From the IMG/VR virus record IMGVR_UViG_3300049783_000823: a stretch of 20,000 bases of DNA; one strand, written 5' to 3'. A program made the position numbers and the translations under genes. The notes under the pieces were generated by a model that was not told the DNA's origin, did no database searches, and saw only the letters and a list, made by a program, of their open reading frames with translations. The stretch comes from an uncultured virus (IMG/VR IMGVR_UViG_3300049783_000823). Lineage: Duplodnaviria > Heunggongvirae > Uroviricota > Caudoviricetes. Of the stretch, positions 1 through 20,000 are shown piece after piece (positions within the stretch are counted from its first letter, which is position 1; every line of letters begins with the position of its first letter).

Positions 1-1
1 G

Positions 2-1012: not shown

Positions 1013-1051
1013 GGTTGAACATATTTATTTAAAAGGAAAAGGAGATTCAAG

Positions 1052-1243: not shown

Positions 1244-1433
1244 AGAAAGATTACAGACAGCAGTGAATGACATAACAGGAGCACCGATAAGAGGTACAAT
1301 ACCTCCTACATTCCGTTCAAGCTATAGAGTCTGTGATAACTGTAACAAGAAAGATGAAACTACAAACATGCATTGTGTTATGTTTGAATTAAAACCTAGC
1401 GAGGGAACTTGCGTAAAATTTAGAGGAAAATAA
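1221..1433 (+). CDS. Small Cys-containing hypothetical protein
   Basis: TTG start preceded by AAAGGAG inside csrA; CDNC...C...C residues; fills the gap between genes. Confidence 0.6.
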
Positions 1434-1434
1434 T

Positions 1435-1611
1435 ATGCTATCATTTAATAACGACATACTAGGAACAGCCAGAAACAGCCGTGAGTCTGGGATGAAGAAG
1501 AATCGTCACTATACAAAGAAAGGGCCTGGACGTGTGACTTATAACAAAGGTAACCCCCATAAACCTCATAACACAATTTCCACAGGTAACGTATTGGTGA
1601 TGCCTAAATGA
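1435..1611 (+). CDS. Small basic hypothetical protein (58 aa, not in ORF track)
   Basis: ATG 1435 after GAGGA; MLSFNNDILG...YTKKGPGR...VMPK; its TGA overlaps the next ATG (ATGA). Confidence 0.6.
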   Translation: MLSFNNDILGTARNSRESGMKKNRHYTKKGPGRVTYNKGNPHKPHNTISTGNVLVMPK

Positions 1612-2435
1612 AGTCTTACGCATTAATCGATGGCGACGTTATAGCCTTTCACGCATGCCCTTATGTCAGACATGATGTTCCCGGTCAAAACGGTGTGCCT
1701 GTATTAGACGAGAACGGTGATGTTGAATTCAAAGCTGGGAGACCTGTATTTGAGTATAGCGAAGCTGAAGATGAAGCCTTTCTGGCTCTTTGTTGGGAAA
1801 ATCTTGTTCGCAGATACAACATTATCATTGAAAAGACATTTTCTGATGAAGCCAAGTGTGCCGTAAAAGGCCCAACAAATTTCAGAGATGAAGTTCATGA
1901 CAACTATAAAGGTCATCGTGACAAGTCAGCCGCAACTCGTAATAACTTTGTGCCAGCTCTAAGGCTTATGATGGTTGAAGAAGGTCTAGCGATTGAAGCC
2001 CAAGGGATGGAGGCTGATGATTACCTTCGTATCTGGGCTGAAGAGTGCAGAGACGATGGCGATGACTTTACTATCTGCTCAGTTGATAAAGATCTTAAGT
2101 GCATTCCAGGAAAGTATTTCAACATGAAGACGGATAAAGTTGAAATGATTACCCCTGAATTTGCATCAAGGTTCTATTACGAGCAGTTGTTAAAAGGTGA
2201 TAGCGTTGATAACATCCCAGGTCTTCCTGGGGTTGGCCCTAAACGTGCGACAAGCATACTCGCAGATTGTAACACGGAAGAAGAGTTTCAGATTGTTGTT
2301 CAAGCTTCTTATCGAGAGAAGTTCGGCGACAACTGGCATAAAGAGCTTATGTTTACAGGGCAGCTCATTTACATCCTGAAGCATGAGAAAGATAGGTTCT
2401 CAACAGCGTCATGGCCTAAGCTTCTTGATGAATGA
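1608..2435 (+). CDS. 5'-3' exonuclease / RNase H (T7 gp6 / FEN-like)
   Basis: Motifs LIDGD, NFR...YKGHR, EADD, DKDL and the helix-hairpin-helix GDSVDNIPGLPGVGPKRA. Confidence 0.93.
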   Translation: MKSYALIDGDVIAFHACPYVRHDVPGQNGVPVLDENGDVEFKAGRPVFEYSEAEDEAFLALCWENLVRRYNIIIEKTFSDEAKCAVKGPTNFRDEVHDNYKGHRDKSAATRNNFVPALRLMMVEEGLAIEAQGMEADDYLRIWAEECRDDGDDFTICSVDKDLKCIPGKYFNMKTDKVEMITPEFASRFYYEQLLKGDSVDNIPGLPGVGPKRATSILADCNTEEEFQIVVQASYREKFGDNWHKELMFTGQLIYILKHEKDRFSTASWPKLLDE

Positions 2436-2635
2436 ATGGCGAAAAGAAAAGAGCATTTAATGTAAGTGTGGCTGTCATAACACACCTGCGAGTAGATGCA
2501 AGCTCTAGCGAAGAAGCTCTCGAAACGGTGGCTTCTCTTCCAGTTAGCGTACTAATCACGGAGGCAGGGGTATCTGCCGCCTACAACCCTAAAGACTCGA
2601 TAATAATCGGGCAAAACATATCGGAGACACAATAA
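2432..2635 (+). CDS. Hypothetical protein
   Basis: ORF translationally coupled to both neighbours. Confidence 0.55.
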   Translation: MNGEKKRAFNVSVAVITHLRVDASSSEEALETVASLPVSVLITEAGVSAAYNPKDSIIIGQNISETQ

Positions 2636-3042
2636 TGGGAAATAAAGAAAGTAATGAAATGCCAGGTGATCCAAGCGGATCTGTAAGAGATATCGATGGA
2701 AACTTTGCCATAACGTCAGAGAGCGCATCTGAAGCGAGTTCAGAAGACAGAGCAGCCCTAGCGAGAAAAGGCGAACAAGAACTCGCTGATATGTCGGATA
2801 TCGGTTTTGTCAATCACTTGATGCTTAACTCGCCATCGCCTAGATTCGCCAACTTATTTATTCTAGCGGCAGCTGAAGCCTATGCTTTCGGTGTGATACA
2901 ACAGATGGAGGAAAGCCAATCTGCTGAAGAAGCGCAAGGGGTTATGCCTTGGAAAGACATAGCGCCGTGGGTGCTAGAAGAGTTTGACAAGCGATACAAA
3001 GAGCTGGAAAGAAGAAAACAAGAGGAGCTGTCAGATGCATGA
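2635..3042 (+). CDS. Hypothetical acidic protein
   Basis: 135-aa ORF with GGAG SD and TAATG coupling. Confidence 0.65.
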   Translation: MGNKESNEMPGDPSGSVRDIDGNFAITSESASEASSEDRAALARKGEQELADMSDIGFVNHLMLNSPSPRFANLFILAAAEAYAFGVIQQMEESQSAEEAQGVMPWKDIAPWVLEEFDKRYKELERRKQEELSDA

Positions 3043-3265
3043 TGTGTTAGTAGAAGTAAATGCTAATGGCGTAAAACCGCTCACAGGGGATCCTTACAGA
3101 TTAGGTGGGGAAAAGTCCACAGCGGCAGCCATTGCTTTGCATCCGACGTGTTCTGAGTGCGGACGAGAGAACCCTTATAATGGGTTAAACAGTAATGGTC
3201 AGCTAAAAGAATTCTGTGAAAGCGGTAGATGCTGTAGCTGCCAGATCTCAATATTTGGGAGATAA
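3035..3265 (+). CDS. Small putative zinc-binding protein
   Basis: Likely start is ATG 3035 (GAGGAG upstream); CSEC...EFCESGRCCSCQ cysteine motif. Confidence 0.6.
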   Translation: MHDVLVEVNANGVKPLTGDPYRLGGEKSTAAAIALHPTCSECGRENPYNGLNSNGQLKEFCESGRCCSCQISIFGR

Positions 3266-3267
3266 AT

Positions 3268-3900
3268 ATGAGTGTGCCTAAGTTCCCGCTAAGAGGAAAA
3301 GGTAAGATTAAATCTAAGAAGGCTTTCCTTCCTGACCTTCAAAATGAGCGTGTAAAACCTAACCAGATAACTAGCGTTTGGATAGACGAAGCAGGAGAGA
3401 TATCTGAAAGAAAACCCTCAGTATCATTAGAAGGGCAGGTCGGAAAGCGTGTTAACCGAAAGAAATATGACGATCTTCCTAACGGTCATTGGGAGTTCGA
3501 GGGCGATATGCGAAGCGGAAAAGCTGTTGGCTTCATATACGTCATTAAAGATCTCAGAAATAATATGCTGTATCTTGGAAAGAAGAGTTATGTAGGGGCG
3601 GGTAAGTTAAACAAAGGTGTAGAGTCAAACTGGCGGTGGTATATATCGTCATCTAAACTCTTAAGTGAATCAGTTAAGACAAACGGTAAAGAAAACTTCA
3701 AATTTTATGCTATAGAAGAGTATAGCTTTAAAGGTGGGCTAAGCTTTGCTGAGACATGGTCTCTCTGTAAGGTGGAAGCTCTGAACGAAAACAGCCGTTG
3801 GTATAATGGTCTGATTGGGAAGGTATCTTGGAAAGTTAAAGAACCTGTAACAGCTAGACACAGAAGGCGACTTCAACAGATAATAGATGGAGAGATATGA
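3268..3900 (+). CDS. GIY-YIG-like (Seg-type) nuclease with N-terminal extension
   Basis: GFIYVIKDLRNNMLYLGKK, WRWYISSS, a conserved E (AET) and WYNG resemble phage GIY-YIG/Seg-like proteins. Confidence 0.7.
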   Translation: MSVPKFPLRGKGKIKSKKAFLPDLQNERVKPNQITSVWIDEAGEISERKPSVSLEGQVGKRVNRKKYDDLPNGHWEFEGDMRSGKAVGFIYVIKDLRNNMLYLGKKSYVGAGKLNKGVESNWRWYISSSKLLSESVKTNGKENFKFYAIEEYSFKGGLSFAETWSLCKVEALNENSRWYNGLIGKVSWKVKEPVTARHRRRLQQIIDGEI

Positions 3901-4121
3901 AAACAGTATCAAGTATTTTAGTGATTATATTATTCGGATTAATTGGCTACAGGTCGTATCTGATATTAACAGCCGGAGTTCCGCTTGACTCAGCTGACTA
4001 CCTGGTCTTAGCTGCGGCTACCTACTTGCTTAACGCAATTGTAACAATATGGAATGACAGTGCTGCCAGCAAGATAGCAAATAAGACATTTAATATAGAT
4101 GAAAATAGCCCAAGGCATTAG
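3897..4121 (+). CDS. Small membrane protein (two predicted TM segments)
   Basis: Hydrophobic stretches ILVIILFGLIGY and YLVLAAATYLLNAIVTIW. Confidence 0.65.
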   Translation: MKTVSSILVIILFGLIGYRSYLILTAGVPLDSADYLVLAAATYLLNAIVTIWNDSAASKIANKTFNIDENSPRH

Positions 4122-5909
4122 ATGGGACGCATTGTAGAACATAACAAGCCCTGCATTTCGTGCACCAGTTCAGACGCGATGCAGATATATGAAGATGGAG
4201 GGGCTAAGTGTTATTCTTGCGGAAAGTCCTTCCACCACTCAAAAGTTGAAAAGGAAAATATGACATCACCTAGGGGGTTTAAAGTACCAAAGAAAAGAGG
4301 GCCATTAGACCCTGAAGATTTTGCTAAAGCTAAAACAGAAGTAGTGAAGGCGACACCGAAAGTATCTTGCGATGAGATCGAAGAGTTTGGAGTGCGTGGT
4401 TTTAAAGACAGGCTTGTCAAGAAGGCAACGAACGAATTCTATGGTGTCAAGGTAGGTTACGATTCAAATGGTCAGATAGATTCTCACTATTACCCTTACG
4501 GTAATGACAAAAAGCGTGGCTATAAAATCAGAGAGTTGCCTAAGACTTTCTCTTTCGTTGGCACATTCGGAGGTCTCTTTGGAAGAGAAAAGTTTTCAGC
4601 CGGAGGGAAGCGTCTCATCATAACGGAGGGAGAAGTTGATGCCCTTTCTGTTGCCCAAGCTTCTTTTGACAGGTATAATAAGTACTATCCTGTAGTCTCT
4701 CTGCCAAGCTCTTCTTGTTCCTCTGTGCTAATGGAAGAACGCGAATGGATTCGTAGTTTTCAAGAAGTAGTCCTATGGATGGATAACGATGAGGCGGGTA
4801 TCACGGCAAGAGATAAGGCCATAAAGATAATTGGCGCTGATAAGGTAAAAGTTGTAGAGATTGCAGAAAATGACGCGTCTGATGTCCTCACAAGCGGTGA
4901 AGATGGCAGCAAGCGAATAATGGAAGCGATATGGGATGCGCAGATGTTCAAGCCTGCTGGCATTATTGGCCAAACAGAGCTTTGGGATGCGTTGGTAAAC
5001 TACAACGAAATCAAGGCCATTCCGTATCCTGAATGTCTGACAGGGATTAACTCAAAGATAAAAGGGGCACGCTTGGGAGAGATTGCGCTCTTTATATCAG
5101 GGACAGGTAGTGGCAAGAGTACCATTGTTAGAGAAATAGGTCTTGAGTTTCTAAGGGCTACTGAAGATAAAATTGGTATAATTTCTTTAGAGGAAAGCCC
5201 AGGTGAAACTGCAAGATTGTTCTCAGGAATGGCTATCCATCGTAACCCTGCAGAAGAAGAAATACCTCTTGATGAGTTGAAGGTTGGCTTTGATAGTGTA
5301 TTCGGCGAAGACAGGGTTGTTGTTCTGGATCATCAAGGCTCCATAAAGGACGATAGCATTTTAGACCAGTTCGAGTACATGTGTCTCTCTGGCTGTAAAT
5401 ATTTATTCGTTGATCACATAACTATTTTAGTATCGGAAGGCGCTGATGGGCTGACAGGTAATGAGGCTATAGATAAGATTATGAATGACCTGCTGAGGCT
5501 GGCTAAGCGTCATACTGTTTGGATCGGCCTTATCTCTCATTTGAGAAAAGCAGAAACAGGTCGGAAAAGCTTTGAGGAGGGCAGGTTGCCATCTATAGAT
5601 GATATACGTGGCTCAGGTAGTATCAAGCAGGTCTCATTTGACATAATAGCCTTCGCTAGAAATATGACGGCTAGACAAGAGCGTGTAAGAAACAGGATTG
5701 AGATGGCAATTCTTAAATCCAGAACAACAGGTAAAACAGGGCCAGTTCTAGGGGCTGACTATAATGTAAAGACAGGTCGTCTTGTAGCAGCTCCGCCTGA
5801 CCTTGAAGATGATGAAGAAGCCTTTGGCGAGGAGAAGACGGAAACAGTAGTATACGAAGAAGCGTTATCCGAAGAAGATCTTATAAATAAATTCAAAAGA
5901 GACAAATAA
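4122..5909 (+). CDS. DNA primase-helicase (T7 gp4-like)
   Basis: N-terminal Zn ribbon (CISC...CYSC), TOPRIM motifs (IITEGEVDALS, MDND), DnaB-type Walker A SGTGSGKS, VDHITI, ISHLRK, DIRGSGSIKQ. Confidence 0.96.
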   Translation: MGRIVEHNKPCISCTSSDAMQIYEDGGAKCYSCGKSFHHSKVEKENMTSPRGFKVPKKRGPLDPEDFAKAKTEVVKATPKVSCDEIEEFGVRGFKDRLVKKATNEFYGVKVGYDSNGQIDSHYYPYGNDKKRGYKIRELPKTFSFVGTFGGLFGREKFSAGGKRLIITEGEVDALSVAQASFDRYNKYYPVVSLPSSSCSSVLMEEREWIRSFQEVVLWMDNDEAGITARDKAIKIIGADKVKVVEIAENDASDVLTSGEDGSKRIMEAIWDAQMFKPAGIIGQTELWDALVNYNEIKAIPYPECLTGINSKIKGARLGEIALFISGTGSGKSTIVREIGLEFLRATEDKIGIISLEESPGETARLFSGMAIHRNPAEEEIPLDELKVGFDSVFGEDRVVVLDHQGSIKDDSILDQFEYMCLSGCKYLFVDHITILVSEGADGLTGNEAIDKIMNDLLRLAKRHTVWIGLISHLRKAETGRKSFEEGRLPSIDDIRGSGSIKQVSFDIIAFARNMTARQERVRNRIEMAILKSRTTGKTGPVLGADYNVKTGRLVAAPPDLEDDEEAFGEEKTETVVYEEALSEEDLINKFKRDK

Positions 5910-7819
5910 TGACTGATAAAATAGAAACACCCTGGAGTTCCGTAGGTTACTTAACATACAAGAGAACCTATTCACGCCCCATTCCAGGGGAAGGCAGGAC
6001 AGAAGAATTCCCTGAGACCATTGACCGTGTAATTAAGAGCTGTAGAGAGCAGCTCAAAGTAGGTTTCACAGAAGAGGAGGAAGAGACGCTTCGTGGTTAC
6101 CTCTTAGAGCTTAAAGGATCAGTAGCCGGTAGATTCCTATGGCAGATGGGTACAGAGACAGTCGATCGAATCGGTCTTGCTAGCTTGCAAAATTGTGCAT
6201 TTACAGTTGTTGATGACCCTATCGTGCCGTTCACTTGGTGCATGGATATGTTAGCCCTAGGCAGCGGAGTCGGTTATAACATCCAACGGGAGCATGTCGA
6301 GAAGATTCCAGCCGTTCGAGAGTGGTTCGCCGCGCCTACCAGAGTGGACGATGGTGGGGCGGATTTCATAATTCCAGACTCTCGTGAGGGGTGGGTGCGT
6401 TTCTTAGCTAAGACGCTTAAAGCCGCCTTCCTATCGGAAAGGCAAGAAAAAGGATCTTTCACATATTCAACGCAAGTTATTCGTGGGAAAGGAACACCAA
6501 TCAAGGGATTCGGTGGTGTAGCAAGCGGGCCTGAAGATCTGGTGAAAGGTGTAGGCCAGATAAGCGCAATCCTAGAGAAAAGGAGAGGAAAGAAAATCAG
6601 ACCTATTGATGCCTTGGATATAATGAACATAATCGGTGCAATCATTGTAGCCGGTAACGTTCGTAGATCAGCTCAAATTGCCATAGGTGATGGTGATGAT
6701 ATTGAGTTCCTTCTTGCAAAACGGTGGGATCTAGGGCACATCCCTCCTTGGCGTGGCATGTCTAACAACAGCGTGGTGTGCTCAAATATCGAAGAACTTC
6801 ATGATTACTTTTGGGATGGGTATGAAGGAAAAGGAGAGCCGTACGGATTAATCAATCTCGATCTGTCCAGAAAAGAAGGTAGATCAGGTGAGACAGAATA
6901 TCCCGACCCTGAAGTCATGGGGTATAATCCGTGCGCTGAGCAATCTCTTGCGCCATATGAGACATGCTGTCTGGCTGAGATCTATTTGCCAAACATAGAC
7001 TCATTGGGCGAATTCCTTGATTTGCTGACATTGCTTTATAAAATAAATAAGCACTCTCTTACACTGCCTGCACATCATCCTGAGACTGCCGCTATTGTCC
7101 ATAAGAATATGCGAATGGGAATAGGTATGACAGGTATCATGCAAGCATCTGAAGAGCAGCTTAGTTGGTTGGATGAAGGTTATCGCTATCTTCGTGACTT
7201 TGACAACCGCTACTCTGAGCTGAAAGGCTTTGAAAGATCAATAAAGCTTACGACAGTAAAGCCTTCAGGCACTCTATCATTGTTGCCAGGTGTTACTCCG
7301 GGTGTTCATCCAGGGTACTCACAGTATATGATACGTCGTATATGTGTATCGGCGGAGCATCCTCTTATTGCCACATGTAAAGAGCATGGATATGAAATGG
7401 AATTCCAAAGAAGATTAGATGGTAGCGAAGATTACAATACATACGTTGTATCTTTTCCTTTCAGATACCCTGAAGGGACTATTCTTGCCAAAGACATGAC
7501 AGCCATAAAACAGCTGAAAACTGTTAAGCAGATGCAGAAAGTTTGGTCAGATAATAGCGTCAGCTGTACAGTCTACTATCGGAAAGAAGAGATACCTGAA
7601 ATAAAACAGTATCTTAAAGAAAACTATGCCAAGACACACAAGTCTTTATCATTCTTGCTACACAACGAGCACGGTTTCGACCAAGCGCCTTTTGAAGAAA
7701 TTACGGAGGAATTATACAATGAAATGACTAAATCTACCAGCACCATAACAGCTATTGCTGACCTTACAAGCTTAGGGTTAGAAGATGAATGTGCAAGCGG
7801 TGCTTGCCCTGTACGATAG
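5909..7819 (+). CDS. nrdJ: Class II (adenosylcobalamin-dependent, monomeric RTPR-type) ribonucleotide reductase
   Basis: TYKRTYSR, NCAF, GNVRRSA, YNPCAEQ (radical Cys), TTVKPSGT and C-terminal redox pair ECASGACPVR; no adjacent beta subunit gene. Confidence 0.9.
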   Translation: MTDKIETPWSSVGYLTYKRTYSRPIPGEGRTEEFPETIDRVIKSCREQLKVGFTEEEEETLRGYLLELKGSVAGRFLWQMGTETVDRIGLASLQNCAFTVVDDPIVPFTWCMDMLALGSGVGYNIQREHVEKIPAVREWFAAPTRVDDGGADFIIPDSREGWVRFLAKTLKAAFLSERQEKGSFTYSTQVIRGKGTPIKGFGGVASGPEDLVKGVGQISAILEKRRGKKIRPIDALDIMNIIGAIIVAGNVRRSAQIAIGDGDDIEFLLAKRWDLGHIPPWRGMSNNSVVCSNIEELHDYFWDGYEGKGEPYGLINLDLSRKEGRSGETEYPDPEVMGYNPCAEQSLAPYETCCLAEIYLPNIDSLGEFLDLLTLLYKINKHSLTLPAHHPETAAIVHKNMRMGIGMTGIMQASEEQLSWLDEGYRYLRDFDNRYSELKGFERSIKLTTVKPSGTLSLLPGVTPGVHPGYSQYMIRRICVSAEHPLIATCKEHGYEMEFQRRLDGSEDYNTYVVSFPFRYPEGTILAKDMTAIKQLKTVKQMQKVWSDNSVSCTVYYRKEEIPEIKQYLKENYAKTHKSLSFLLHNEHGFDQAPFEEITEELYNEMTKSTSTITAIADLTSLGLEDECASGACPVR

Positions 7820-7826
7820 CACCTAC

Positions 7827-7851
7827 GGCCCTCTGTAACGGAGGGCCTTTT
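7827..7851 (+). terminator. Rho-independent terminator
   Basis: GGCCCTC-tgtaacg-GAGGGCC followed by TTTT, directly after the RNR stop. Confidence 0.8.
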
Positions 7852-7867
7852 AATTGAGGAAAACAAA

Positions 7868-8137
7868 ATGAATGGAGATAGTGAGAGCAACGAAGAATTT
7901 TATAAAGTTGGTGACAAGTTCAAATGGGAGAACAAAAACTGGCCTTCAAAAGACTACAAGCCTGTGGTATATGTAATAGCTCGGGTGGATGCTGAAAGAG
8001 TGCTTATTCTTAACACTGAAACCTGGAACAGATGGTCTAACTCTGTGTTAACAGAGAGTAATACACGTATAACGGAAGAAGAGCTAACAGAAATCATGGG
8101 AGGGGCGCGTAATGAGTTCACAAAAATCGAAGGGTAA
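7868..8137 (+). CDS. Hypothetical protein
   Basis: GAGGA SD; 89-aa ORF. Confidence 0.7.
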   Translation: MNGDSESNEEFYKVGDKFKWENKNWPSKDYKPVVYVIARVDAERVLILNTETWNRWSNSVLTESNTRITEEELTEIMGGARNEFTKIEG

Positions 8138-8441
8138 TGTATCAGCAGAAGACCTCATAAAGGACATAGAGTTTAACGGAATACAGGTAAAGAGAGGTCT
8201 GACCCACATTGACAATATGCTGCAAAAGTTGCTTGAAGATTCGCCTCTAATGGGGTGTTTCCACCCTCAATCACCTGGGTTCTGTTTTTCCATATGGAGA
8301 GAGGATGGTGAGGTGGCTGATCGCGCTTATGTCGTTTTTGAAAAAGGAAAATGGAAACACCTTGATGAAGGAAACCAAAACCCAAGGAAAAGAGAAGTAC
8401 TTGAAATACTAACCGAATTAATAGGAGAAGAATATGTTTAA
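8112..8441 (+). CDS. Hypothetical protein
   Basis: GGAGG SD; overlaps both neighbours. Confidence 0.65.
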   Translation: MSSQKSKGNVSAEDLIKDIEFNGIQVKRGLTHIDNMLQKLLEDSPLMGCFHPQSPGFCFSIWREDGEVADRAYVVFEKGKWKHLDEGNQNPRKREVLEILTELIGEEYV

Positions 8442-9348
8442 ACCTTTACTTGCCCCAAATGACGACCCTTTAAGAAACCCTAAATTCTTCGACTTATTGA
8501 AGTATCCACTAATGGTATCACCAAAACTGGATGGAATACGTGCCGTTATGCGCAAAGACATATGCAGCTCGCGTACCAATAAAGAACTCCCTAACATCAA
8601 TTTGGGGGAGTTTGCTTTCAACCTGCGTGGGCTTGATGGTGAATTCATAGCAGGTGAAGTTACTGACCATGATGTTTACAATCGAACGCAAAGTGTTATC
8701 ATGTCAATCAACAAACCTACGGATGATATTACTTACTATGTATTTGATGTGGCGGACCCTGAGTTCGCTAATACTCCTTTTAAGACTCGTATTCAGATAG
8801 CGGAACGAGACGTGAGAGCAGCTAATCTTAAGCACCCAGGTCTCAAGGTTGAATTTGTTGAGCATAGCCTCGTTGAAACATATGAAGAGCTTATAGCTTA
8901 CGAAGAAGAGATGCTTGAGAAGGGGTTTGAAGGTATCATGCTAAGGGATCCTGAAGGGGTTTATAAACATGGCCGATCTACGATGCTGCAAGGGCATCTT
9001 ATAAAGTTGAAGCGGTTTCAAGATGATGAGGCTGAAGTTATTGGGTTCATCGAGCAGCAAACCAACAACAATCCTATTTTTGTAAATGAAGTAGGCGGAT
9101 CCTCGCGTTCAACTAAGAAAGACGGTCTAACACCAGCTGGTACTCTAGGGAAGCTGATTGTGAGCTACAATGATATGGATCTAGAAGTATCATGTGGAAC
9201 GCTCTCGCATGCTGATAGGAAGGTCATATGGAAAAACCAAGATGCCTTTTTAGGACAACATATAACATTCAGACATTTCTTGCATGGCGCTAAAGACAAG
9301 CCGAGGTTTCCGAGATTCGTTGGATGGCGCAACATGGAGCATATGTGA
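8434..9348 (+). CDS. ATP-dependent DNA ligase
   Basis: Motif I SPKLDGIR, LDGE, YYVFD, GFEGIMLR, KLKR and C-terminal PRFPRF. Confidence 0.95.
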   Translation: MFKPLLAPNDDPLRNPKFFDLLKYPLMVSPKLDGIRAVMRKDICSSRTNKELPNINLGEFAFNLRGLDGEFIAGEVTDHDVYNRTQSVIMSINKPTDDITYYVFDVADPEFANTPFKTRIQIAERDVRAANLKHPGLKVEFVEHSLVETYEELIAYEEEMLEKGFEGIMLRDPEGVYKHGRSTMLQGHLIKLKRFQDDEAEVIGFIEQQTNNNPIFVNEVGGSSRSTKKDGLTPAGTLGKLIVSYNDMDLEVSCGTLSHADRKVIWKNQDAFLGQHITFRHFLHGAKDKPRFPRFVGWRNMEHM

Positions 9349-9581
9349 TGGGTATACAGTTCACAGAAGTTAAGAGAGTGCGACCTAACCTTTCGATAGC
9401 CCGTAAAGTAGATACATCGGTTGCGTATGCCATGAGGGTGCTGACACCTACTAAGCTACAGATGATGAAATCTAATGTAGATATATTAGATTCAGTAATC
9501 CGCACTTCGAGAGATCCAGAAGCTGTCGAGCGAGCTAAAGAATCTAAACAAAATATAAAAGAACAAATGAAAGGAGCATAA
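9348..9581 (+). CDS. Hypothetical protein
   Basis: Likely start is ATG 9348, overlapping the ligase stop (TGATG), with GGAG upstream. Confidence 0.6.
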   Translation: MGIQFTEVKRVRPNLSIARKVDTSVAYAMRVLTPTKLQMMKSNVDILDSVIRTSRDPEAVERAKESKQNIKEQMKGA

Positions 9582-10385
9582 ATGACTACGTCATTAACAC
9601 CTGAATACTTAAGACTTGATAGCGCATTGTCTCGTTTCTTCGGAGACGGCTTCGGAGAAGACTATGAGTTTAGTCTTCAGGATCTTAAACGCGACTTTGC
9701 TGAAGCTGGCACAATGCTGTGCGGAGGTGCGATAACAAGCATTTATTCAGGTATGAAGATCAATGACCTCGACTTCTATGTAAGAGACGAAGCTGGTGCT
9801 GATAAGTTACGAAAGGCTATTCTAACGCGTGGATACGAAGAAGTTTGCATCTCGAGAAATGCAATGACATATAAGCGCAAGAGCGTCAACTCTAGAAAGG
9901 TATGGACCATTCAAATCATAACAAGATTTATGGGACCGCCTTCTGAAATATTTGACACTTTCGATTTCACAATAACTCAGGGAGCTTATGATTTCAATCT
10001 AGGTTTCACAGCTTGTGAAGACAACCATGCTATGCCTAAAGGGGGTTTCGTTCTAGGAACCAGATTCTTGGAGGACATAGCCAGAAGAAGATTAGTATAC
10101 CTCGGCGGGTCTAGATACCCCCTGTGCGCAATGTACAGAACAAAGAAGTATGAAGCAAAAGGCTATCGACTCCCAGGTAGTACCATAATGCATATCGGAA
10201 TATCTATAATGCGTCTTGAGCTAGAAACCTATGGTGATCTCAAGGAACAGCTAAACGGTATCGATACGCAATTTCTTGGTAATATCTTGGGTGACTACGA
10301 TGATATGCAAGAAGATGCTCCTCTAGATTATTCTTTATTTCTAGAAAGAGTTTTTGAAAAAATGACACCAGAACTATTCGATTAA
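9582..10385 (+). CDS. Pol-beta superfamily nucleotidyltransferase (tRNA nucleotidyltransferase / poly(A) polymerase-like head domain)
   Basis: CGGAITS...INDLDFY (GG...DxD) and FDFTITQGAYD (xDFT motif). Confidence 0.75.
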   Translation: MTTSLTPEYLRLDSALSRFFGDGFGEDYEFSLQDLKRDFAEAGTMLCGGAITSIYSGMKINDLDFYVRDEAGADKLRKAILTRGYEEVCISRNAMTYKRKSVNSRKVWTIQIITRFMGPPSEIFDTFDFTITQGAYDFNLGFTACEDNHAMPKGGFVLGTRFLEDIARRRLVYLGGSRYPLCAMYRTKKYEAKGYRLPGSTIMHIGISIMRLELETYGDLKEQLNGIDTQFLGNILGDYDDMQEDAPLDYSLFLERVFEKMTPELFD

Positions 10386-10403
10386 TATAATACAGGAAAA
10401 ATT

Positions 10404-10871
10404 ATGACAAGCTTTTTTAGAAACATTTGGGAAAAATTAGTGGGAAGACCTAAAGAGGTTCAAGCAGAATACGACAAACTTGTGGATACAACGCCTAGAA
10501 TCGCCTCCACAGGATATGGTGAAAGCGGTTATTTCACTGAAGATGATATCATATCCATAGCTGCAGCGAGCGGATCTGTCCGTTCTCGGCTGGAAAGAAA
10601 TTCCGAAAGAGTAATGTCTATTGTAAAGAAGAGATCAAGGATATCTGATCCCAACTTTGTTAAGTCTGGAAGGATATCAAGACAATGGAAGGTAGAAGGA
10701 AGTCTTCTTTGTTACAGGATGCCGGCAAGCGTCAATCCTAAGCGGCTTATTCTGATGGCTTTTGATCCAAACACCACGTCTACCTTTACAGATAGCGTGG
10801 GTGTAACTTTAGAAGCGCTTGGGAAAGTTATGCCTAAGTGTCTCGAAGAGACCGAACGTCACCCGAACTAG
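10404..10871 (+). CDS. Hypothetical protein
   Basis: 155-aa ORF with CAGGA SD. Confidence 0.7.
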   Translation: MTSFFRNIWEKLVGRPKEVQAEYDKLVDTTPRIASTGYGESGYFTEDDIISIAAASGSVRSRLERNSERVMSIVKKRSRISDPNFVKSGRISRQWKVEGSLLCYRMPASVNPKRLILMAFDPNTTSTFTDSVGVTLEALGKVMPKCLEETERHPN

Positions 10872-11056
10872 CCCCGTTTGGGGCACAGTTGGCAGACAGG
10901 ATGTTTTTCGCCAGCGAAGTGAGCTTCACCACGGCTCTCTCAAAACGCCTCAGGGTTTCGCTCTCTCAGCGTGCCTAGGCGTGTTTAACCCGTTAAATTA
11001 ACCCTGAAAGGGAAGTCGAATTAGCGGTATCACATCTCAGTTAGATTGGGAAATTG

Positions 11057-11080
11057 CCATAGGCAAATAATGGCCTATGG
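11057..11080. promoter_or_regulatory. Inverted repeat upstream of the 11131 gene (possible operator or mRNA leader hairpin)
   Basis: CCATAGGC-aaataatg-GCCTATGG, perfect 8-bp arms. Confidence 0.45.
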
Positions 11081-11130
11081 TATTACATTAAAAAGATTCA
11101 ATAATGAATCACAACATACAGGAATATAAC

Positions 11131-11745
11131 ATGTCTGAATTAAAAAAAGGTTTCGTAGTAGAAGGTCAATTTTTCGCAACTAAAGCAGACGCAGAAGAAT
11201 TTTTGCGTACACCGGTTGTCTTAGAAGCTTTGACAGTACTAACTTCTGACGAAGCAAGTTCGAAGTGGTTGTTAGAAAATCGCGATGCAATTCTTAGCAC
11301 GTATAAAGCAGGTCAAATCAGACGTGTATCAAAAGCTGAGCGTAAAGCATTGGTTAAAGCGTTAGATGAAGTTACCGAAGGTTTCTTAGCAGATAACCGT
11401 GATAGCATTATCACATCATTCCGCTGGCCTAAAGTAACCCGTGACACGGACTCAGCTGAAGCCCTTAAAACAGCTTTTGTTGAGCTATGCGAAGGTAACG
11501 AAGAACTAGCTGATTGGTTGCTTGCTACTAAAGCTGAATTGGAAGAAGCTTTCAATGCAGGCAAGCCTAAGCGTAAAGTTTCTCAGAAAGCTTTAGATGC
11601 TCTTGCCGAGTTCCGTAACTTGTCTAAAGAAGAGCAAGAAGCTCGTCGTGCAGAAAACCGTGCCAAGAAAGCAGCCGCTACAAAATCAGTTGAAGAAGCT
11701 ACAGAAGCTCCAGAAGCTGAAGAAGCAAAGGCTGACAAAAGCTAA
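11131..11745 (+). CDS. Hypothetical Ala/Glu/Lys-rich protein with internal repeats, probably highly expressed
   Basis: Likely start is ATG 11131 (CAGGA SD); codon usage rich in CGT/GCT/GAA; repeated W/F-L-x-x-N-R/K-D/A helical segments. Confidence 0.8.
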   Translation: MSELKKGFVVEGQFFATKADAEEFLRTPVVLEALTVLTSDEASSKWLLENRDAILSTYKAGQIRRVSKAERKALVKALDEVTEGFLADNRDSIITSFRWPKVTRDTDSAEALKTAFVELCEGNEELADWLLATKAELEEAFNAGKPKRKVSQKALDALAEFRNLSKEEQEARRAENRAKKAAATKSVEEATEAPEAEEAKADKS

Positions 11746-11759
11746 TTAATTAGCTAAAT

Positions 11760-12060
11760 GAGCATAACCGACAAGGTCGGTCTAGCTTAAAGTACTATAA
11801 AACCACTCGATGTCTATTTGAAGATCACTGCCTACTGTCTAGCCGTAGGGTGTCCCTTTGATTTGACTAGAGTGGTTTTATTTTTGAACATTATAGGTTA
11901 GCAGACCTTTTCTGCTAGGGTGGGCTTACTCTCCACCCGCGTTACACTTTGGTGTAATTAGACTGAATATTAATACCACCAATGCCTTTCTCCTTTATAG
12001 GCAGAAATCTCATCAGAGACGCTGTACTTGGGTGGTATGATTTCTTCAGTTATCATAATG
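11760..12060 (+). ncRNA. Candidate structured non-coding RNA / long 3' UTR
   Basis: No long ORF. Multiple stems: 11767-11781; ATAAAACCACTC/GAGTGGTTTTAT (11797-11881); 11899-11917; 11918-11938; 11942-11957; multibranch 11962-12050. Ends at a terminator. Confidence 0.5.
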
Positions 12061-12064
12061 GTAG

Positions 12065-12087
12065 CCCCTCTTAATTGAGGGGTTTTT
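12065..12087 (+). terminator. Rho-independent terminator
   Basis: CCCCTC-ttaatt-GAGGGG followed by TTTTT. Confidence 0.8.
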
Positions 12088-12107
12088 AATTGAAAGAGGA
12101 GACTATA

Positions 12108-12689
12108 ATGAAACGAAAAGGCATAGATACAGCTGCGTTAGCGAAGGCTTTCAGATTGAGAAGCTCCGCCGCAGATCTTGAGAAGGCAATGCTAGCCTTC
12201 AGCAAATTTAATCAAAACAAACAGAGGTTAGAAGAAATGAGCGAATCACTAAAAAACGATTACTTGGTAAGATTTTATGATAACGACAACGGCCCTGTGC
12301 CTGTTAAAGAAGATATCTATAGAGGCAGGTCAGCCACAGAAGTTATAAATTCCATCGAGAATAGCCAAATGTATGAAAACAGTCGTTTCTCTAGCTTTGC
12401 CGTCCGTAAGGTGGACGATATTGTAAGAATTAGAAACAGGACTCTGAGAAAGAGAGTGTTAATACGAAGGGTTGCGAATGGTGTTCCGTTTCAGATAATC
12501 GAAGAGAATGGGGGTCTAGGCAGTATGGCTATGAAAGTCAAATCCTCAAATACGACAAAAGATGCAAAAAACATTTTAGTGAACCTAAACACCAATACAT
12601 CCTTTAGGATTAGAGGCGATGATCGCGAATGCTATCTTATCAACTGGACGTCCCATTTTACTGGCTATGTACTTGAGGGAGATGAATAA
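12108..12689 (+). CDS. Hypothetical protein
   Basis: Likely start is ATG 12108 (GAGGAG SD). Confidence 0.7.
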   Translation: MKRKGIDTAALAKAFRLRSSAADLEKAMLAFSKFNQNKQRLEEMSESLKNDYLVRFYDNDNGPVPVKEDIYRGRSATEVINSIENSQMYENSRFSSFAVRKVDDIVRIRNRTLRKRVLIRRVANGVPFQIIEENGGLGSMAMKVKSSNTTKDAKNILVNLNTNTSFRIRGDDRECYLINWTSHFTGYVLEGDE

Positions 12690-14245: not shown

Positions 14246-14326
14246 CGAAGACGGAGTAAGACAATGAAAACAATATTCACAATCGAAGACGGAGTAAGAC
14301 AATGAAAACAATATTCACAATCGAAG
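14246..14326 (+). repeat. Exact 38-bp tandem duplication (2.1 copies) of a translation-initiation region
   Basis: CGAAGACGGAGTAAGACAATGAAAACAATATTCACAAT at 14246 and 14284, plus CGAAG at 14322. Confidence 0.95.
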
Positions 14327-14874
14327 GCCAAGTGATCAGAGCAGCTTTATTATGTGCGGCTAAGAATGACGCGAGACGTTATCTCAACGGTGTAATGGTC
14401 AATACAATAGATAATGTATTGGTTAGTACGAACGGACACGTGTTGTATAAGAATAAGATTTATGTCGATCGTGAGTGTAACTTAGAGAAAGAGTACATTT
14501 TAGAATCTTTTAAAGTACCAAGGTCAGTTCTTGAGGTCGTGATAACAATAGAAGACGATGCTAATGTTGCACTCGTTACAATGTATGACAAGAAGAAAAT
14601 TACGAACATGATTGAAGTTGATTTAATCGACGGTAGGTTCCCTGATTACAAAAGGATATTACCAGCACCCACTGATAAAGTTGAAATCAGTGAGTGTGGT
14701 TTCACGGGTGAGCATCTATCATTAGTTGATAAAGTGTTCCCCAAGAGTGTAGTGCGGTTCGACTTTAAATCTAACAGTCGTGTTATTGTTCAGGCTCAAG
14801 TTTACAGTAATAAAGAGTACATAATAAATAGAGATCGGGGTATGCTGTTGGTAGCGAACGCAAAGATTAAATAG
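14302..14874 (+). CDS. DNA polymerase III beta-clamp-like protein (truncated, central-domain homologue)
   Basis: AAKNDARRYLNGV, VSTNGHVL and LIDGRFPDYKRILP resemble DnaN DVRYYLNG / ATDGHRL / DGRFPDYRRVLP; only 190 aa. Confidence 0.8.
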   Translation: MKTIFTIEGQVIRAALLCAAKNDARRYLNGVMVNTIDNVLVSTNGHVLYKNKIYVDRECNLEKEYILESFKVPRSVLEVVITIEDDANVALVTMYDKKKITNMIEVDLIDGRFPDYKRILPAPTDKVEISECGFTGEHLSLVDKVFPKSVVRFDFKSNSRVIVQAQVYSNKEYIINRDRGMLLVANAKIK

Positions 14875-17425: not shown

Positions 17426-17428
17426 TGT

Positions 17429-17556
17429 ATATAACCCCTGGGGGGTAATTAGCCGCCTTTGGTGGCACAGAATTGGAGCAATGATGATGTCAAACGAAGC
17501 TGAGAAACAAGAAACCGACACAACAGTAGGCGGTCTGATTGACCCAGTTGTTATGT
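17429..17556 (-). repeat. attC-like site 1 (128 bp, long loop)
   Basis: Minus strand: R'' ACATAAC-AACTG-L'' GGT(C)AATC-AG(A)CCGCC...GGCGGCT-L' AATTACC-8-nt spacer-R' GTTATAT. Confidence 0.75.
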
Positions 17557-17783
17557 GCTGGACACCTGTATCAGAGAAGTTGCCTGATAACGGAAAGATG
17601 GTGCTTGTAACAATTAATACAGAAACACCTTGTAGTGGCGTATCTAGCTACACTCCCTGCGATGGGGGTCAGTGGTACAGATGGCAGGAGGCTGATGAAT
17701 ACAAAACAGATACTCCGTACTACAGTGACTATGATATGGAGATAACGCACTGGATGTATATGCCTGAAGCGTTTGGCACATAA
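17481..17783 (+). CDS. DUF551-family protein (cassette ORF) whose N-terminus is encoded inside attC site 1
   Basis: WTPVSEKLP...VLV...ITHWMYMPEA; its stop TAA is the TAA of the next TAAC. Confidence 0.8.
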   Translation: MMMSNEAEKQETDTTVGGLIDPVVMCWTPVSEKLPDNGKMVLVTINTETPCSGVSSYTPCDGGQWYRWQEADEYKTDTPYYSDYDMEITHWMYMPEAFGT

Positions 17784-17837
17784 CCTCGCAAATAAAGCGC
17801 GAGCTTTAGCGAGTCGAATTTAATGCCGTTGTTATAC
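17778..17837 (-). repeat. attC-like site 2 (60 bp)
   Basis: Minus strand: GTATAAC-AACGG-CAT(T)AAAT...CTTTATT-TGCGAG-GTTATGT. Confidence 0.85.
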
Positions 17838-17844
17838 GGCGAGG

Positions 17845-18153
17845 ATGAGAGGTATGGATTTATTATCTAGACCAAAAGATCAGGAACACAAGACAGTGGT
17901 GTCTTTAAGAACAGAGATGTTTAAAAGAGGTAGTGGGTTCGTTGCCGCTAAAGTTTTAACGACCCTAAAAAGAAAATCTACAGGGTTTGATATTTTAAAC
18001 GAAGGCGTATCTGAAGAGATTGAAGATCTGAGTAATATTGATGGGTTGTATACGCTCCCTGACGGTATTTATGAGCTGAGGTACGCTAACATAAGTAGGG
18101 ATTACGAATCAGGTCACTGGGAGTATTACGGCTACGAGTTGGTAGCCGTATAA
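17845..18153 (+). CDS. Hypothetical phage protein (cassette ORF)
   Basis: LPDGIYEL...NISRDYESG; stop lies in TAAC. Confidence 0.75.
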   Translation: MRGMDLLSRPKDQEHKTVVSLRTEMFKRGSGFVAAKVLTTLKRKSTGFDILNEGVSEEIEDLSNIDGLYTLPDGIYELRYANISRDYESGHWEYYGYELVAV

Positions 18154-18206
18154 CCCCTCGATTAACCGTCGAGTTTACGAGTCCGAGTTTAATGCCGTTT
18201 TTATAC
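18148..18206 (-). repeat. attC-like site 3 (59 bp, R'' AAC>AAA)
   Basis: Minus strand: GTATAAA-AACGG-CATTAAAC...GTTAATC-GAGGG-GTTATAC; related in sequence to site 2. Confidence 0.8.
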
Positions 18207-18236
18207 GGCTTAATAGTTAACAAACAGGATGATGAG

Positions 18237-18398
18237 ATGAAAACACGAGCAGAATATGGTTGTTACGAGAACTTTAAAAGGGAAAAAGAACGTGAGCTAC
18301 TTAGCGAATACAGAGCTAATCACGAGAATTTTAAAGATCAATATGATTACCCAAGCTTTGAAGACTTTTGCATAGGTAAGTGGCAATGGCTTAGGTAG
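18237..18398 (+). CDS. Hypothetical protein (cassette ORF)
   Basis: Likely start is ATG 18237 after CAGGATGA; the ORF-track start at 18192 lies inside the attC. Confidence 0.65.
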   Translation: MKTRAEYGCYENFKREKERELLSEYRANHENFKDQYDYPSFEDFCIGKWQWLR

Positions 18399-18400
18399 CC

Positions 18401-18479
18401 GCATAACCTTTGCGTTAAGCGGTTAAAACGGAGCGTAGCGGCCAACTGTTTTAATCCGACTTGCACGGCGTTGTTATGT
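18401..18479 (-). repeat. attC-like site 4 (79 bp)
   Basis: Minus strand: ACATAAC-AACGC-CGTGCAAG-TCGG(A)TTAAAAC...GTTTTAACCG-CTTAACG-CAAAG-GTTATGC. Confidence 0.85.
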
Positions 18480-18517
18480 GGCGTATTGAATATTAAATTA
18501 AAAAAGAGGATAGAAAA

Positions 18518-18670
18518 ATGGGCTTTAGTTTAGAGGGTTTATTTATACAGTTAGAGCAAGTAATCAATAATGGTGATATTAACGAGCAAGACCAGTTAGC
18601 CGAACTGATAGAGAAAATAGAGTGGTGGAAAAATTATGCTATTCAGTGCGGAAACATGAAAGACACATAA
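18518..18670 (+). CDS. Hypothetical 50-aa protein (cassette ORF, not in ORF track)
   Basis: GAGGA SD; MGFSLEGLFIQLEQ...WWKNYAIQCGNMKDT; stop lies in TAAC. Confidence 0.7.
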   Translation: MGFSLEGLFIQLEQVINNGDINEQDQLAELIEKIEWWKNYAIQCGNMKDT

Positions 18671-18748
18671 CGCTCTAGCTAAATTGGCGCTGGACGTAAA
18701 CAGAACAGGCGCGAAACTTTAACGCTCAATTTGAGCGTCTTGTTAGGC
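18665..18748 (-). repeat. attC-like site 5 (84 bp), closest match to canonical geometry
   Basis: Minus strand: GCCTAAC-AAGAC-GCT(C)AAAT-TG(A)GCG...CGCCA-ATTTAGC-TAGAGC-GTTATGT. Confidence 0.9.
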
Positions 18749-18767
18749 GCATTACGGAGAAATAATT

Positions 18768-18953
18768 ATGGAAACAAGGACAATACAGCAGCTAGCTAAT
18801 GACTTTAACTTAAAGTACTGCGAGGCTTGCAATACATCAAAGCCTGTCGATTGGGGGCAGGCGGCGCTTGCCGCGAGACAAATGGTAGACGCAATGGCCG
18901 AGAGAGGGCTTATTACTGATTCGTTACCAGAATTACAAGAACGCAGCACCTAA
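18768..18953 (+). CDS. Hypothetical protein (cassette ORF)
   Basis: GGAG SD; stop lies in TAAC. Confidence 0.7.
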   Translation: METRTIQQLANDFNLKYCEACNTSKPVDWGQAALAARQMVDAMAERGLITDSLPELQERST

Positions 18954-19007
18954 CGCCCGTTAATAAGCCGTGAGCGTCAGCGAGTCCAAACCACTGCTTT
19001 GTTATAT
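18948..19007 (-). repeat. attC-like site 6 (60 bp, degenerate L'' box)
   Basis: Plus strand ACCTAAC...GAGCGTCAGCGAGTCC...TTTGTTATAT; central motif shared with sites 2, 3 and 9. Confidence 0.7.
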
Positions 19008-19021
19008 TCAGGAGATAAAAC

Positions 19022-19186
19022 ATGACGAAGAAAGAATTAATTTTCGCTTTGCAAGATTTTGATGATGATGAAGTTATCGTAATTTCTGACGACGAGGGCG
19101 GATGGGATAATATCGAAGCAGTTGGCCGAATAGATGGAACAGCAGCGATATTTTTTGGCGGCGGTTCTCCCTTCAGTGATGAGTGA
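19022..19186 (+). CDS. Hypothetical acidic 54-aa protein (cassette ORF, not in ORF track)
   Basis: AGGAG SD; MTKKELIFALQDFDDDEVIVISDDEGGWDNI... Confidence 0.75.
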   Translation: MTKKELIFALQDFDDDEVIVISDDEGGWDNIEAVGRIDGTAAIFFGGGSPFSDE

Positions 19187-19273
19187 ATATAATCCCGTAA
19201 ATACGCGAGACGACTGGATGAACCGGTGCCCTTTGGTTACATAACCAAGAATTAACCAAAACGGAGATATAAA

Positions 19274-19597
19274 ATGAGATTATACATGATTAAAGTAGGT
19301 AAAAAGTGGGATAAAGGCGCTATTTACATAGGTCGTGGAAGTCCGCTAGGTAATCCCTTTGTAATGAGTAGTGAAATCGAAAGAGATCATGTATGTGATC
19401 TCTATGAGGACTGGCTGAAGGCTCGTATTGAAGAGCGTGATCCAAAGGTGATAGATGCCTTAAATCATATAGCCATTAAGTCTCGTAAAGAAGATGTCAC
19501 ATTAGGTTGCTTCTGTGCGCCTAAGCGGTGTCATGGAGACACTATCAAGCGCGTTATCGAAGATAAGCTAAAGTGCGGCGATAGCCGTCAATTTTGA
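19274..19597 (+). CDS. DUF4326-family protein
   Basis: IYIGRGSPLGNPF...R..VC..YE...LGCFCAPKRCHGD. Confidence 0.85.
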   Translation: MRLYMIKVGKKWDKGAIYIGRGSPLGNPFVMSSEIERDHVCDLYEDWLKARIEERDPKVIDALNHIAIKSRKEDVTLGCFCAPKRCHGDTIKRVIEDKLKCGDSRQF

Positions 19598-19611
19598 GCG
19601 CCTTGTTATTA
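19567..19611 (-). repeat. Truncated attC-like site 8 (R' lost), overlapping the 3' end of the DUF4326 gene
   Basis: Minus strand: TAATAAC-AAGGC-GCT(C)AAAA-TTG(A)CGGC-TATC-GCCGCA-CTTTAGC, with no GTT after the spacer. Confidence 0.7.
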
Positions 19612-19624
19612 TGCGCTGGGAGGT

Positions 19625-19831
19625 GTGAGAATGATTAACGTACCAAGATACACTGCATTAGAACTAGATACAGCACAAATCGTTGAGGATTACTATTACC
19701 TAGAAAACGGCTACTGGATGAGTAATGGCAAGCCAGACTTAAACCAGCCAGTCGAGCGCCACTACATTGTTGATGTTGATGGTAGGCACAGAGAGATTGC
19801 TGAAAATACATTAGACGGATTAGGGGTATAA
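19625..19831 (+). CDS. Hypothetical protein (cassette ORF)
   Basis: GGGAGG SD, start GTG 19625 or ATG 19631; stop lies in TAAC. Confidence 0.7.
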   Translation: MRMINVPRYTALELDTAQIVEDYYYLENGYWMSNGKPDLNQPVERHYIVDVDGRHREIAENTLDGLGV

Positions 19832-19886
19832 CCTCGCAAATAAAGCGCGAGCTTTAGCGAGTCGATTTTAACTTGCCTTGTTAGGC
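19826..19886 (-). repeat. attC-like site 9 (61 bp), near copy of site 2
   Basis: 19828-19865 is identical to 17780-17817 (38 bp); ends CTTGTTAGGC. Confidence 0.85.
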
Positions 19887-19907
19887 GGGAACGAACAGGA
19901 GAGATTG

Positions 19908-20000
19908 ATGGAACACTTAAGAGTTAACAAGCATTGTGATTGCACACACAAAATTACATGGTTTGCTGAGAATGTAGAAAACTGTGTTATTGATAGGGAG
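19908..20000 (+). CDS. Next cassette ORF, truncated by the window end
   Basis: CAGGAGA SD, then MEHLRVNKHCDCTHK..., open to the window end. Confidence 0.6.
   Translation, partial: MEHLRVNKHCDCTHKITWFAENVENCVIDRE

Follow-up and report, generated by a model that had tools for sequence, protein, structure and literature searches.

The last 2.6 kb of a 20,000-nt stretch of DNA from an uncultured virus of the Caudoviricetes (IMG/VR record IMGVR_UViG_3300049783_000823; the whole stretch is called the window here, and the strand as recorded is its + strand) consists of small genes alternating with repeated intergenic elements, and the locus raises the question of why the two ends of a gene-bearing unit should be complementary to each other. 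Up to about 17.4 kb the genes of the window form a phage replication module, in which the large open reading frames (ORFs) all lie on the + strand; beyond this point ORFs of 50-107 aa, likewise all on +, are spaced by elements of about 45-115 nt. The interpretation developed here, to which we assign a probability of roughly 0.7, is that the region from 17.4 to 20.0 kb is an integron-type gene-cassette array without an integrase, carried by a phage with a T7-like replication module. Since the attC-like sites, at least eight of which are packed into the final 2.6 kb, occur without an integrase, such an array is a cluster of attC sites lacking integron integrases (CALIN). Sites are named 0 and A to H, and units 1 to 9, in their order along the + strand.

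Complementarity of the unit ends

Under this interpretation each intergenic element would be an attC-type site, composed of inverted cores (..TAAC / GTTA..), unit-specific arms beside them and a centre that varies. Read along +, a cassette would comprise C, the site centre, GTTA with the start arm, a ribosome-binding site, the ORF, the end arm and ..AA. When a cassette is free and circular, its end and start arms would meet, and their pairing would give the outer stem of the bottom strand folded as single-stranded DNA, whereas insertion would place them at opposite ends of the unit; it is this parting of the arms that would leave unit ends complementary. The integron integrase would cut and rejoin cassettes at ..AA|C.

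The original prediction, made from the sequence alone, had listed six start/end pairs, and all six are present in the window (17550/17776, 17831/18145, 18201/18397, 18473/18664, 18742/18946 and 19001/19184). For scoring, the ends were anchored on GTT and AAC, the next nine positions were counted, and starts were re-paired with ends by permutation. Across the six units between 17550 and 19193 the own pairings scored 40 against a permutation mean of 28.8, a value reached by 6 of 720 permutations; when contiguous runs were counted instead, the score was 30 against 16.2, with 3 of 720 permutations as high. Inclusion of a seventh unit (19605/19832, a poor pair) gave 43 against 31.7 and 16 of 5040 permutations as high. 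The tying permutations arise because units 1 and 4, and likewise units 2 and 3, have near-identical arms. True pairings thus scored better than permuted ones, as had been predicted.

The same scoring was applied to G155, a 37.3-kb IMG/VR contig that carries ten attC-like sites, and to bacterial integrons as a positive control. The control set came from a single bacterial order, that of a metagenome-assembled genome (MAG) carrying a copy of site H, in which integron integrase (intI) genes scored above the curated cut-off in 83 of 151 sampled genomes; 20 intI-adjacent stretches were taken and their repeated attC sites extracted. The nine G155 units scored 46 against 30.3 (1 of 20,000 permutations as high). 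The intI-adjacent array L159 gave 40 against 22.1 (10 of 20,000), and a second one, L154, in which the consecutive sites used were not all adjacent cassettes, gave 29 against 20.8 (759 of 20,000). Taken together, the arm complementarity in the window is unit-specific and well beyond chance, though imperfect, and its strength in the phage units is comparable to that in bacterial integron arrays.

Pairing of the arms within present-day sites is weaker, with a contiguous total of 15 over five sites compared with 30 for the six own pairs. This agrees with the original observation that outer arms match less well within most existing sites; that observation named the third site as an exception, and in fact sites B and C both pair well in both ways, within the site and within the unit.

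Resemblance to bacterial attC sites and polarity of the array

A model of bacterial attC (R1) was built from 28 sites in five intI-adjacent bacterial arrays. RNAalifold, run on a MAFFT alignment of these sites, retained three base pairs, the register of the inner stem shifting by one column between families, and because the consensus kept only these three pairs R1 is mostly a sequence profile. In the 15 intI-adjacent arrays on which it was not trained, R1 found 76 sites at 10-51 bits, and all 76 lay on the expected strand, running away from intI. In the window it found five matches, all within 17426-19889, all at intergenic sites and all on the − strand; site D scored 26.5 bits over the full length of the model (E 3e-6) and the other four 8-10 bits. 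Matches were also antisense to the ORFs in a 203-kb metagenome contig, L183 (4 of 4), and in the IMG/VR contigs G153 (1 of 1) and G155 (4 of 5).

The flanks and the folded arms point to the same polarity. In 16 of 17 phage sites GTT has TT before it, giving TAACAA on the − strand, and AA follows AAC in 16 of 17 bacterial sites compared with none of 17 phage sites. Eight phage sites form a helix of at least 8 bp beside the outer stem, and in seven of them bulged bases are more numerous on the coding strand's 3′ arm; the bottom strands of bacterial sites show this excess on the 3′ arm in 10 of 11 cases. A published control is found in Qi et al. 2023 (PMC9892861), where the aadA7 reverse primer of Table S3 resembles bacterial top strands (..CTAACAA....GCGTTAG..), while the forward primer (..CTAACGC....TTGTTAGAC) has the pattern of the window + strand.

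Since the strand of the R1 matches, the flank motifs, the bulged arm and the ends of homology at AAC (see below) all agree, the attC bottom strand is the + strand, on which the genes are encoded. A cut at the canonical place, G|TT of the top strand, hence lies at ..AA|C on +, and each site therefore moves together with its downstream gene. The original prediction was thus correct in proposing to circularise units at AA|C, but its R″ label was misplaced, ..ATAAC being the cleaved core and + the bottom strand. Neither the window nor Pseudoalteromonas phage H101, whose attC sites are compared below, shows the arrangement in which the ORF occupies the attC top strand and the site lies 3′ of the gene. 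Top-strand ORFs are typical of cassettes rather than defining, and reverse-oriented cassettes occur in bacteria. A strict palindrome finder requiring at least seven contiguous bases was also tried and was dropped, as it missed true attC sites even in bacterial arrays.

Folding of array and circularised sites

As arranged in the array, sites A, B, D, G and H have folds with a z of about −2, and sites E and F show no such fold. When units were circularised in silico at AA|C, as the original prediction had proposed, window sites joined to their own arms were more stable than the array sites by a mean of 0.9-1.2 kcal/mol, and in G155 the gain was 2.1-3.1 kcal/mol; in both sets own-arm sites also folded better than versions with permuted arms. 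Site C forms a long imperfect hairpin with a 10-bp outer stem, 5+5 unpaired bases and an 18-bp bulged helix. A textbook attC shape, in which the spacers are 5 nt long and the + strand has a single extra G, can be drawn by hand for site D, and a textbook attC hairpin is present in six of nine G155 sites. A small local hairpin with GTTA in its loop, in which bases immediately ahead of TTGTTA pair with bases behind it, was seen in sites A, B, D, G and H and was rejected as a general feature: its mean stem was 3.39 for own and 3.20 for non-own combinations, 4310 of 20,000 permutations were as high, and bacterial sites behaved alike.

Recurrence of units and sites in other sequences

The original prediction had expected the same units to turn up beside other neighbours in metagenomes, and units 1 and 3 do so. 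Unit 1 (17443-17784) recurs at 96% identity in X6, a seawater run of a different study, at 95.6% in L183 and at 80.7% in a further metagenome contig, L184; in all three, unlike sequence begins immediately 3′ of the ..GGCACATAAC that ends the unit. Unit 3 recurs in X6 over 18177-18409, stopping 2 nt past AAC. All four right ends of units 1 and 3 in X6, L183 and L184 thus lie at AAC or AAC+2, with differing neighbours. Repeated cassettes in the bacterial arrays have both ends at |GTTA, whereas blocks shared in the phages stop at the AAC core instead: a 344-nt duplication in G155 extends from |ATAAC to ..GCATAACA|, with both ends at the AAC core; and of the repeat blocks in H101, one starts at |ATAAC and stops at a start codon, the other ending at ..TATAAC|. 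The downstream boundary of shared units is therefore sharp at the predicted crossover, and site centres are mosaic in addition.

Single sites are reused as well. Site D (18665-18745) occurs with other flanks in runs X3, X4 and X5, and its right half, together with the leader (18729-18762), precedes a different ORF in X5 and X6. The homology of unit 9 in X5 and X6 begins at 19875. A copy of site H, 98% identical, lies in a phage-like contig of an unrelated MAG; a second site stands beside this copy, followed by an ORF in which N6/N4 DNA methyltransferase motifs were seen by eye. A pattern taken from the right half of sites A and B led to three IMG/VR contigs, one of them G155. The first and last 101 nt of G155 are 99% identical, CheckV estimates 87% and IMG/VR labels the contig linear; given this end overlap, G155 is probably a complete genome, terminally redundant or circularly permuted. 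The protein of its duplicated cassette, used as a query, matched only itself.

Several further observations concern the distribution and variety of these elements. The array is nearly whole in four ice-metagenome runs, and seawater, estuary and ballast-water runs hold single units only. At 1729-2000 of L184, genes that end in ..GGCACATAAC lead into a conserved stretch of about 23 nt (ACCAACCTAAACGACAACGGGAG), the leader before a start codon, and the GTTA core is absent; such AAC cores lacking a partner are possibly decayed sites. In G153 (locus L178) two more site families of about 48 nt with TAAC...GTTAT ends are repeated within the contig (6104-6150 and 12652-12700; 8465-8512 and 15306-15353), so the site family is broader than the types in the window. 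A joint in X6 that goes back 984 was considered and rejected as a circle junction, being another gene order in which unlike sequence continues past 17784. A degenerate pattern, GAGTC..TTTAA..TTGTTA, gave more than 120 single-match loci in viral contigs, which were judged to be chance.

Weighing the cassette interpretation

Several results weigh against an integron-type array. R1 covers five of the eight window sites, with a single E-value below 0.001, and is the profile of one bacterial order. The bulge asymmetry of site A is opposite to that of the other sites, and this site forms a local hairpin with 17 unpaired bases. An attC-type hairpin appears in one of the six circularised window sites (C), and the minimum-energy folds of A, B, E and F are not of this kind. 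Unit 7 lacks a good end arm, and outside the core the arms of unit 8 do not match. Among shared units the left end is variable, lying 4-7 nt after the upstream AAC in X6 and L183, 22 nt after it for unit 3, and at TTGTTA in L184; recombination within site centres must therefore also occur. No circular junction of the window's arrangement was found in contigs from runs X3-X6, a result that says little because contigs drop rare variants.

The remaining difficulty is the enzyme. A scan of 32 window ORFs found no recombinase domain, the array has no intI, attI or Pc beside it, and tyrosine (PF00589) and serine (PF00239) recombinases are absent from G153, G154, G155 and from G001, the nearest IMG/VR record to the window; the enzyme would thus have to be the host's. 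Nor was a bacterial source of the sites found. The centre pattern of sites A and H had no match in viral contigs, none in metagenome contigs and one in 185,579 species genomes, in the phage-like MAG contig, which holds no integron; the right-hand module gave three single 2-mismatch matches in 401 genomes, compared with one for a control pattern. Since the sites were not found in these bacterial genomes, phages could have a cassette pool of their own, or a different recombinase could be at work.

The latter alternative, in which site-specific cassettes are moved by host XerCD or by an unrecognised phage enzyme, as a parallel system that resembles attC, gains from these same results, from the lack of an integron integrase linked to any of the phage arrays, and from the placement of genes on the bottom strand, unlike typical bacterial cassettes. 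It is nevertheless rather unlikely, since the cores, flanks and bulge asymmetry fit bacterial attC bottom strands, two H101 sites of the same family are among the substrates listed for an integron integrase (IntI1) assay (PMC9892861), and integron integrases are encoded in the order of the site-H MAG; this last link to a host is a loose one, because the MAG contig looks phage-like. A second possibility is that the elements are phage regulatory modules, a terminator-like hairpin with a promoter and 5′ leader like the promoter/stem-loop cassettes of T4-type phages, exchanged by homologous recombination, and that their likeness to attC is superficial. Such modules would account for the mosaic centres, in which hairpin and right-hand parts occur in varied combinations, for the leader that accompanies the right half of site D to a different ORF, for an H101 site and leader common to two different genes up to the ATG, and for the stable folds of several array-form sites. 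Crossover between homologous repeats alone, however, gives no unit-specific complementary arms, and a model made only from bacterial attC detects the elements, always on one strand; the H101 sites in the IntI1 assay speak against regulatory modules as well. Nor do the expected signals appear: the window has 16 sigma-70-like promoter sites against 14.3 expected, of its eight terminator-like sites (4.1 expected) none lies on + inside an intergenic site, and the intergenic sites have no T-run. We regard this explanation as quite unlikely, and the view of the original prediction, that the units are recombination products rather than terminators, is supported.

It is least probable, and indeed hardly credible, that the unit ends pair in RNA, influencing the stability or processing of mRNA from its 5′ and 3′ ends, and are kept by selection with no DNA recombination. 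Both arms would indeed be transcribed, given that one is in the 5′ leader and the other at the stop codon. On the other hand, no G/U occurs among the three mismatches in the window pairs (A/C, G/A and C/A); a unit in G155 extends over 2.7 kb; no Rfam family matched; and pairing in RNA would leave unexplained both the ends of homology at AAC and the match to bacterial attC. The interpretation as an integron-type cassette array is therefore preferred. On this reading a host integron integrase (IntI) would catalyse the exchange of cassettes, free circular forms would exist, and the array may still be active.

Sites and units of the array

Inverted cores of the form ..(A/C)TAAC / GTTA(T/G).., 43-114 nt apart, are present at six of the nine sites (0, A, C, D, E and H), the exceptions being site B, with TTT for GTT, site F, with AAT for AAC, and site G, whose left core is degenerate. 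All sites are assigned to − and all units to +. Rfam and tRNA scans found nothing.

Site 0 (17427..17559) has 114 nt between a ..TATAAC core that ends at 17435 and GTTATGTGC at 17550; it is matched by R1 (17426-17559, −, 8.9 bits, E 0.63) and holds the 5′ extension of the unit 1 ORF. Unit 1 (17550..17784), with 9/9 matching arm positions, carries a DUF551 gene whose ORF (17481-17783) reads through the core GTTATG. Codon 25 is the ATG within the core, and residue 26 is the first of the Pfam domain, so the site centre encodes the N-terminal 24 residues. The same DUF551 arrangement, with different upstream extensions, is found in L183 and L184. Site A (17776..17840), whose centre is near-identical to that of site H (repeat family D1, 98%), has no R1 match. 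Unit 2 (17831..18154; arms 10/10) encodes 102 aa of no family (ORF 17845-18153). Site B (18145..18210), with TTT in place of GTT at 18200, belongs to repeat family D3 and has no R1 match. It is followed by unit 3 (18200..18407; arms 9/10), with an ORF at 18192-18398 for which 18237 is the likelier start.

Site C (18397..18482) is matched by R1 at 18398-18482 on − (8.6 bits, E 0.77), and unit 4 (18473..18671; arms 8/8) encodes 50 aa (ORF 18518-18670). Site D (18662..18751) has the highest likeness to bacterial attC (R1 26.5 bits, E 3.3e-6, full length) and reads ..CCTAACAAG....GCGTTATG... on the − strand. Unit 5 (18742..18954; arms 8/9) encodes 61 aa (ORF 18768-18953). Site E (18946..19010) folds weakly and has no R1 match; unit 6 (19001..19193; arms 9/10), which encodes 54 aa (ORF 19022-19186), ends in a core with AAT instead of AAC. 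The degenerate site F (19184..19247; ..TATAAT ... GGTTACATAACC) also has no R1 match. Unit 7 (19236..19604), the one without a matching end arm, carries a DUF4326 gene (ORF 19274-19597), and the left core of the degenerate site G (19558..19614; R1 10.4 bits, E 0.23) lies inside the 3′ end of this ORF. Unit 8 (19605..19832), with its arm match limited to the core, encodes 68 aa (ORF 19625-19831). Site H (19823..19889; R1 7.9 bits, E 1.3) precedes the start of unit 9 (19880..20000), whose ORF begins at about 19909 and leaves the window, so that the array probably continues further.

The phage and its replication module

The replication module comprises, all on +, genes for a family-A DNA polymerase (C-terminal part only), a 5′-3′ exonuclease, a T7-type primase-helicase, a class II ribonucleotide reductase, an ATP-dependent ligase and a DHH phosphoesterase. 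The closest GenBank phage primase-helicase, that of Roseobacter phage CRP-7, is 50% identical, and no GenBank phage scored higher. Blastn against GenBank phages, a collection that may lack close relatives, found no nucleotide relative for the array, for the rest of the window or for site D. G001 is identical to positions 1-12359 of the window and then ends. The DHH protein, used as a query, turned up no related loci.

A gene for a GIY-YIG homing endonuclease resembling SegE (3268-3900) is inserted between the exonuclease and primase-helicase genes. At 14246-14334 a 38-nt sequence is perfectly duplicated in tandem (14246-14283 and 14284-14321), and there is a partial third copy; the repeats lie directly upstream of ORF 14302-14874 and overlap its start, the product of this ORF being assigned as RusA-like by PHROG and as clamp-like by Pfam.

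Possible significance

Integrons are known mainly as bacterial gene-capture systems. Lytic marine phages might keep an integron-type cassette pool of their own, with genes on the bottom strand, that is shuffled by the host integrase between co-infecting phages; this proposal is put forward tentatively, and we consider it more doubtful than the assignment of the array itself. If it is true, the accessory genes so shuffled would be those for DUF551 and DUF4326 proteins, methyltransferases and ORFans, possibly with counter-defence genes among them, and phages could supply integron cassettes as well as take them up. Where replication forks run with transcription, the recombinogenic strand would be the lagging-strand template. 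The window has at least eight sites and G155 ten, the arrays bear the footprint classically left by cassette cycling, and units are common to uncultured phages sampled in different studies; the mosaic make-up of accessory genes in marine phages may therefore owe something to cassette exchange. The placement of genes on the bottom strand would matter for how such arrays are detected, annotated and expressed, and bottom-strand phage cassettes bear on the question of where integron cassettes originate.

Comparison with known systems

Among phage elements, the PeSL (promoter/stem-loop) cassettes of T4-type phages reportedly consist of sigma-70 promoters and terminators, recombine by homology and form small circles. 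The window resembles them in that repeated intergenic elements surround small accessory ORFs, in a part of a lytic phage genome that is plastic and in which genes are shuffled, and differs from them in having no promoter or terminator signal and in its TAAC/GTTA cores, unit-specific inverted arms and match to a bacterial attC model.

The sedentary chromosomal integron arrays of Gammaproteobacteria, represented here by the intI-adjacent arrays L154, L155, L158, L159 and L164, are closer. Like the window, they have small ORFs that all point the same way, inverted cores with a stop codon inside, complementarity over 8-10 nt that is specific to the unit, repeated cassettes that end at the crossover core, and hairpins with extra bases on one arm. 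The window differs in lacking intI, attI and Pc, in carrying its genes on the attC bottom strand with the site upstream of the gene, and in its heterogeneous, mosaic site centres, the sequences of which were not found in the bacterial genomes sampled.

The closest published counterpart is the set of attC clusters reported for phages by Qi et al. 2023 (PMC9892861), who obtained from 10,705 phage genomes 17 clusters without an integrase, several of them in virulent marine phages and most with 2-4 predicted sites. Section 3.4 of that paper reports that, of six phage attC sites put to the test, IntI1 integrated five into attI1, bottom strands being more efficient than top strands; PH101_attC1 and attC2 belong to the tested panel in Table S3. 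In the text of the paper no statement was found that the genes lie on the bottom strand, although its figures and Dryad file may show the polarity. Beyond this paper, no other report of attC clusters in virulent phages stood among the titles listed by a second literature search.

Phage H101 (PH101 in Qi et al. 2023) allows a direct comparison. R1 finds four sites on its + strand at 75.9-78.0 kb, where all eight annotated coding sequences are on −, and two of the four are PH101_attC1 and attC2. On the coding strand these sites read ..ATAAC(G/A)....CTTGTTAT.., an end pattern shared with the window; as in the window, the arms are complementary within a unit (six of eight positions in each of three units), repeat blocks end at the AAC core, and no integrase is adjacent. 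Global identity between H101 and window sites (about 65-70% over 60-nt sites) was calculated with no random control and is not used as evidence. In two H101 cassettes, at 76.2-77.6 kb, a repeated, unannotated stretch was seen by eye on the top strand, opposite to the annotated genes; it resembles a ribosome-binding site with an ATG that opens a reading frame, and these cassettes may contain convergent gene pairs. H101 is a virulent 132-kb Shandongvirus and the window phage a different virus, with no nucleotide match by blastn; the H101 array has four sites and the window at least eight within 2.6 kb, those of the window being known as sequences only. The window array is thus a new and larger member of the kind of CALIN already published for virulent phages.

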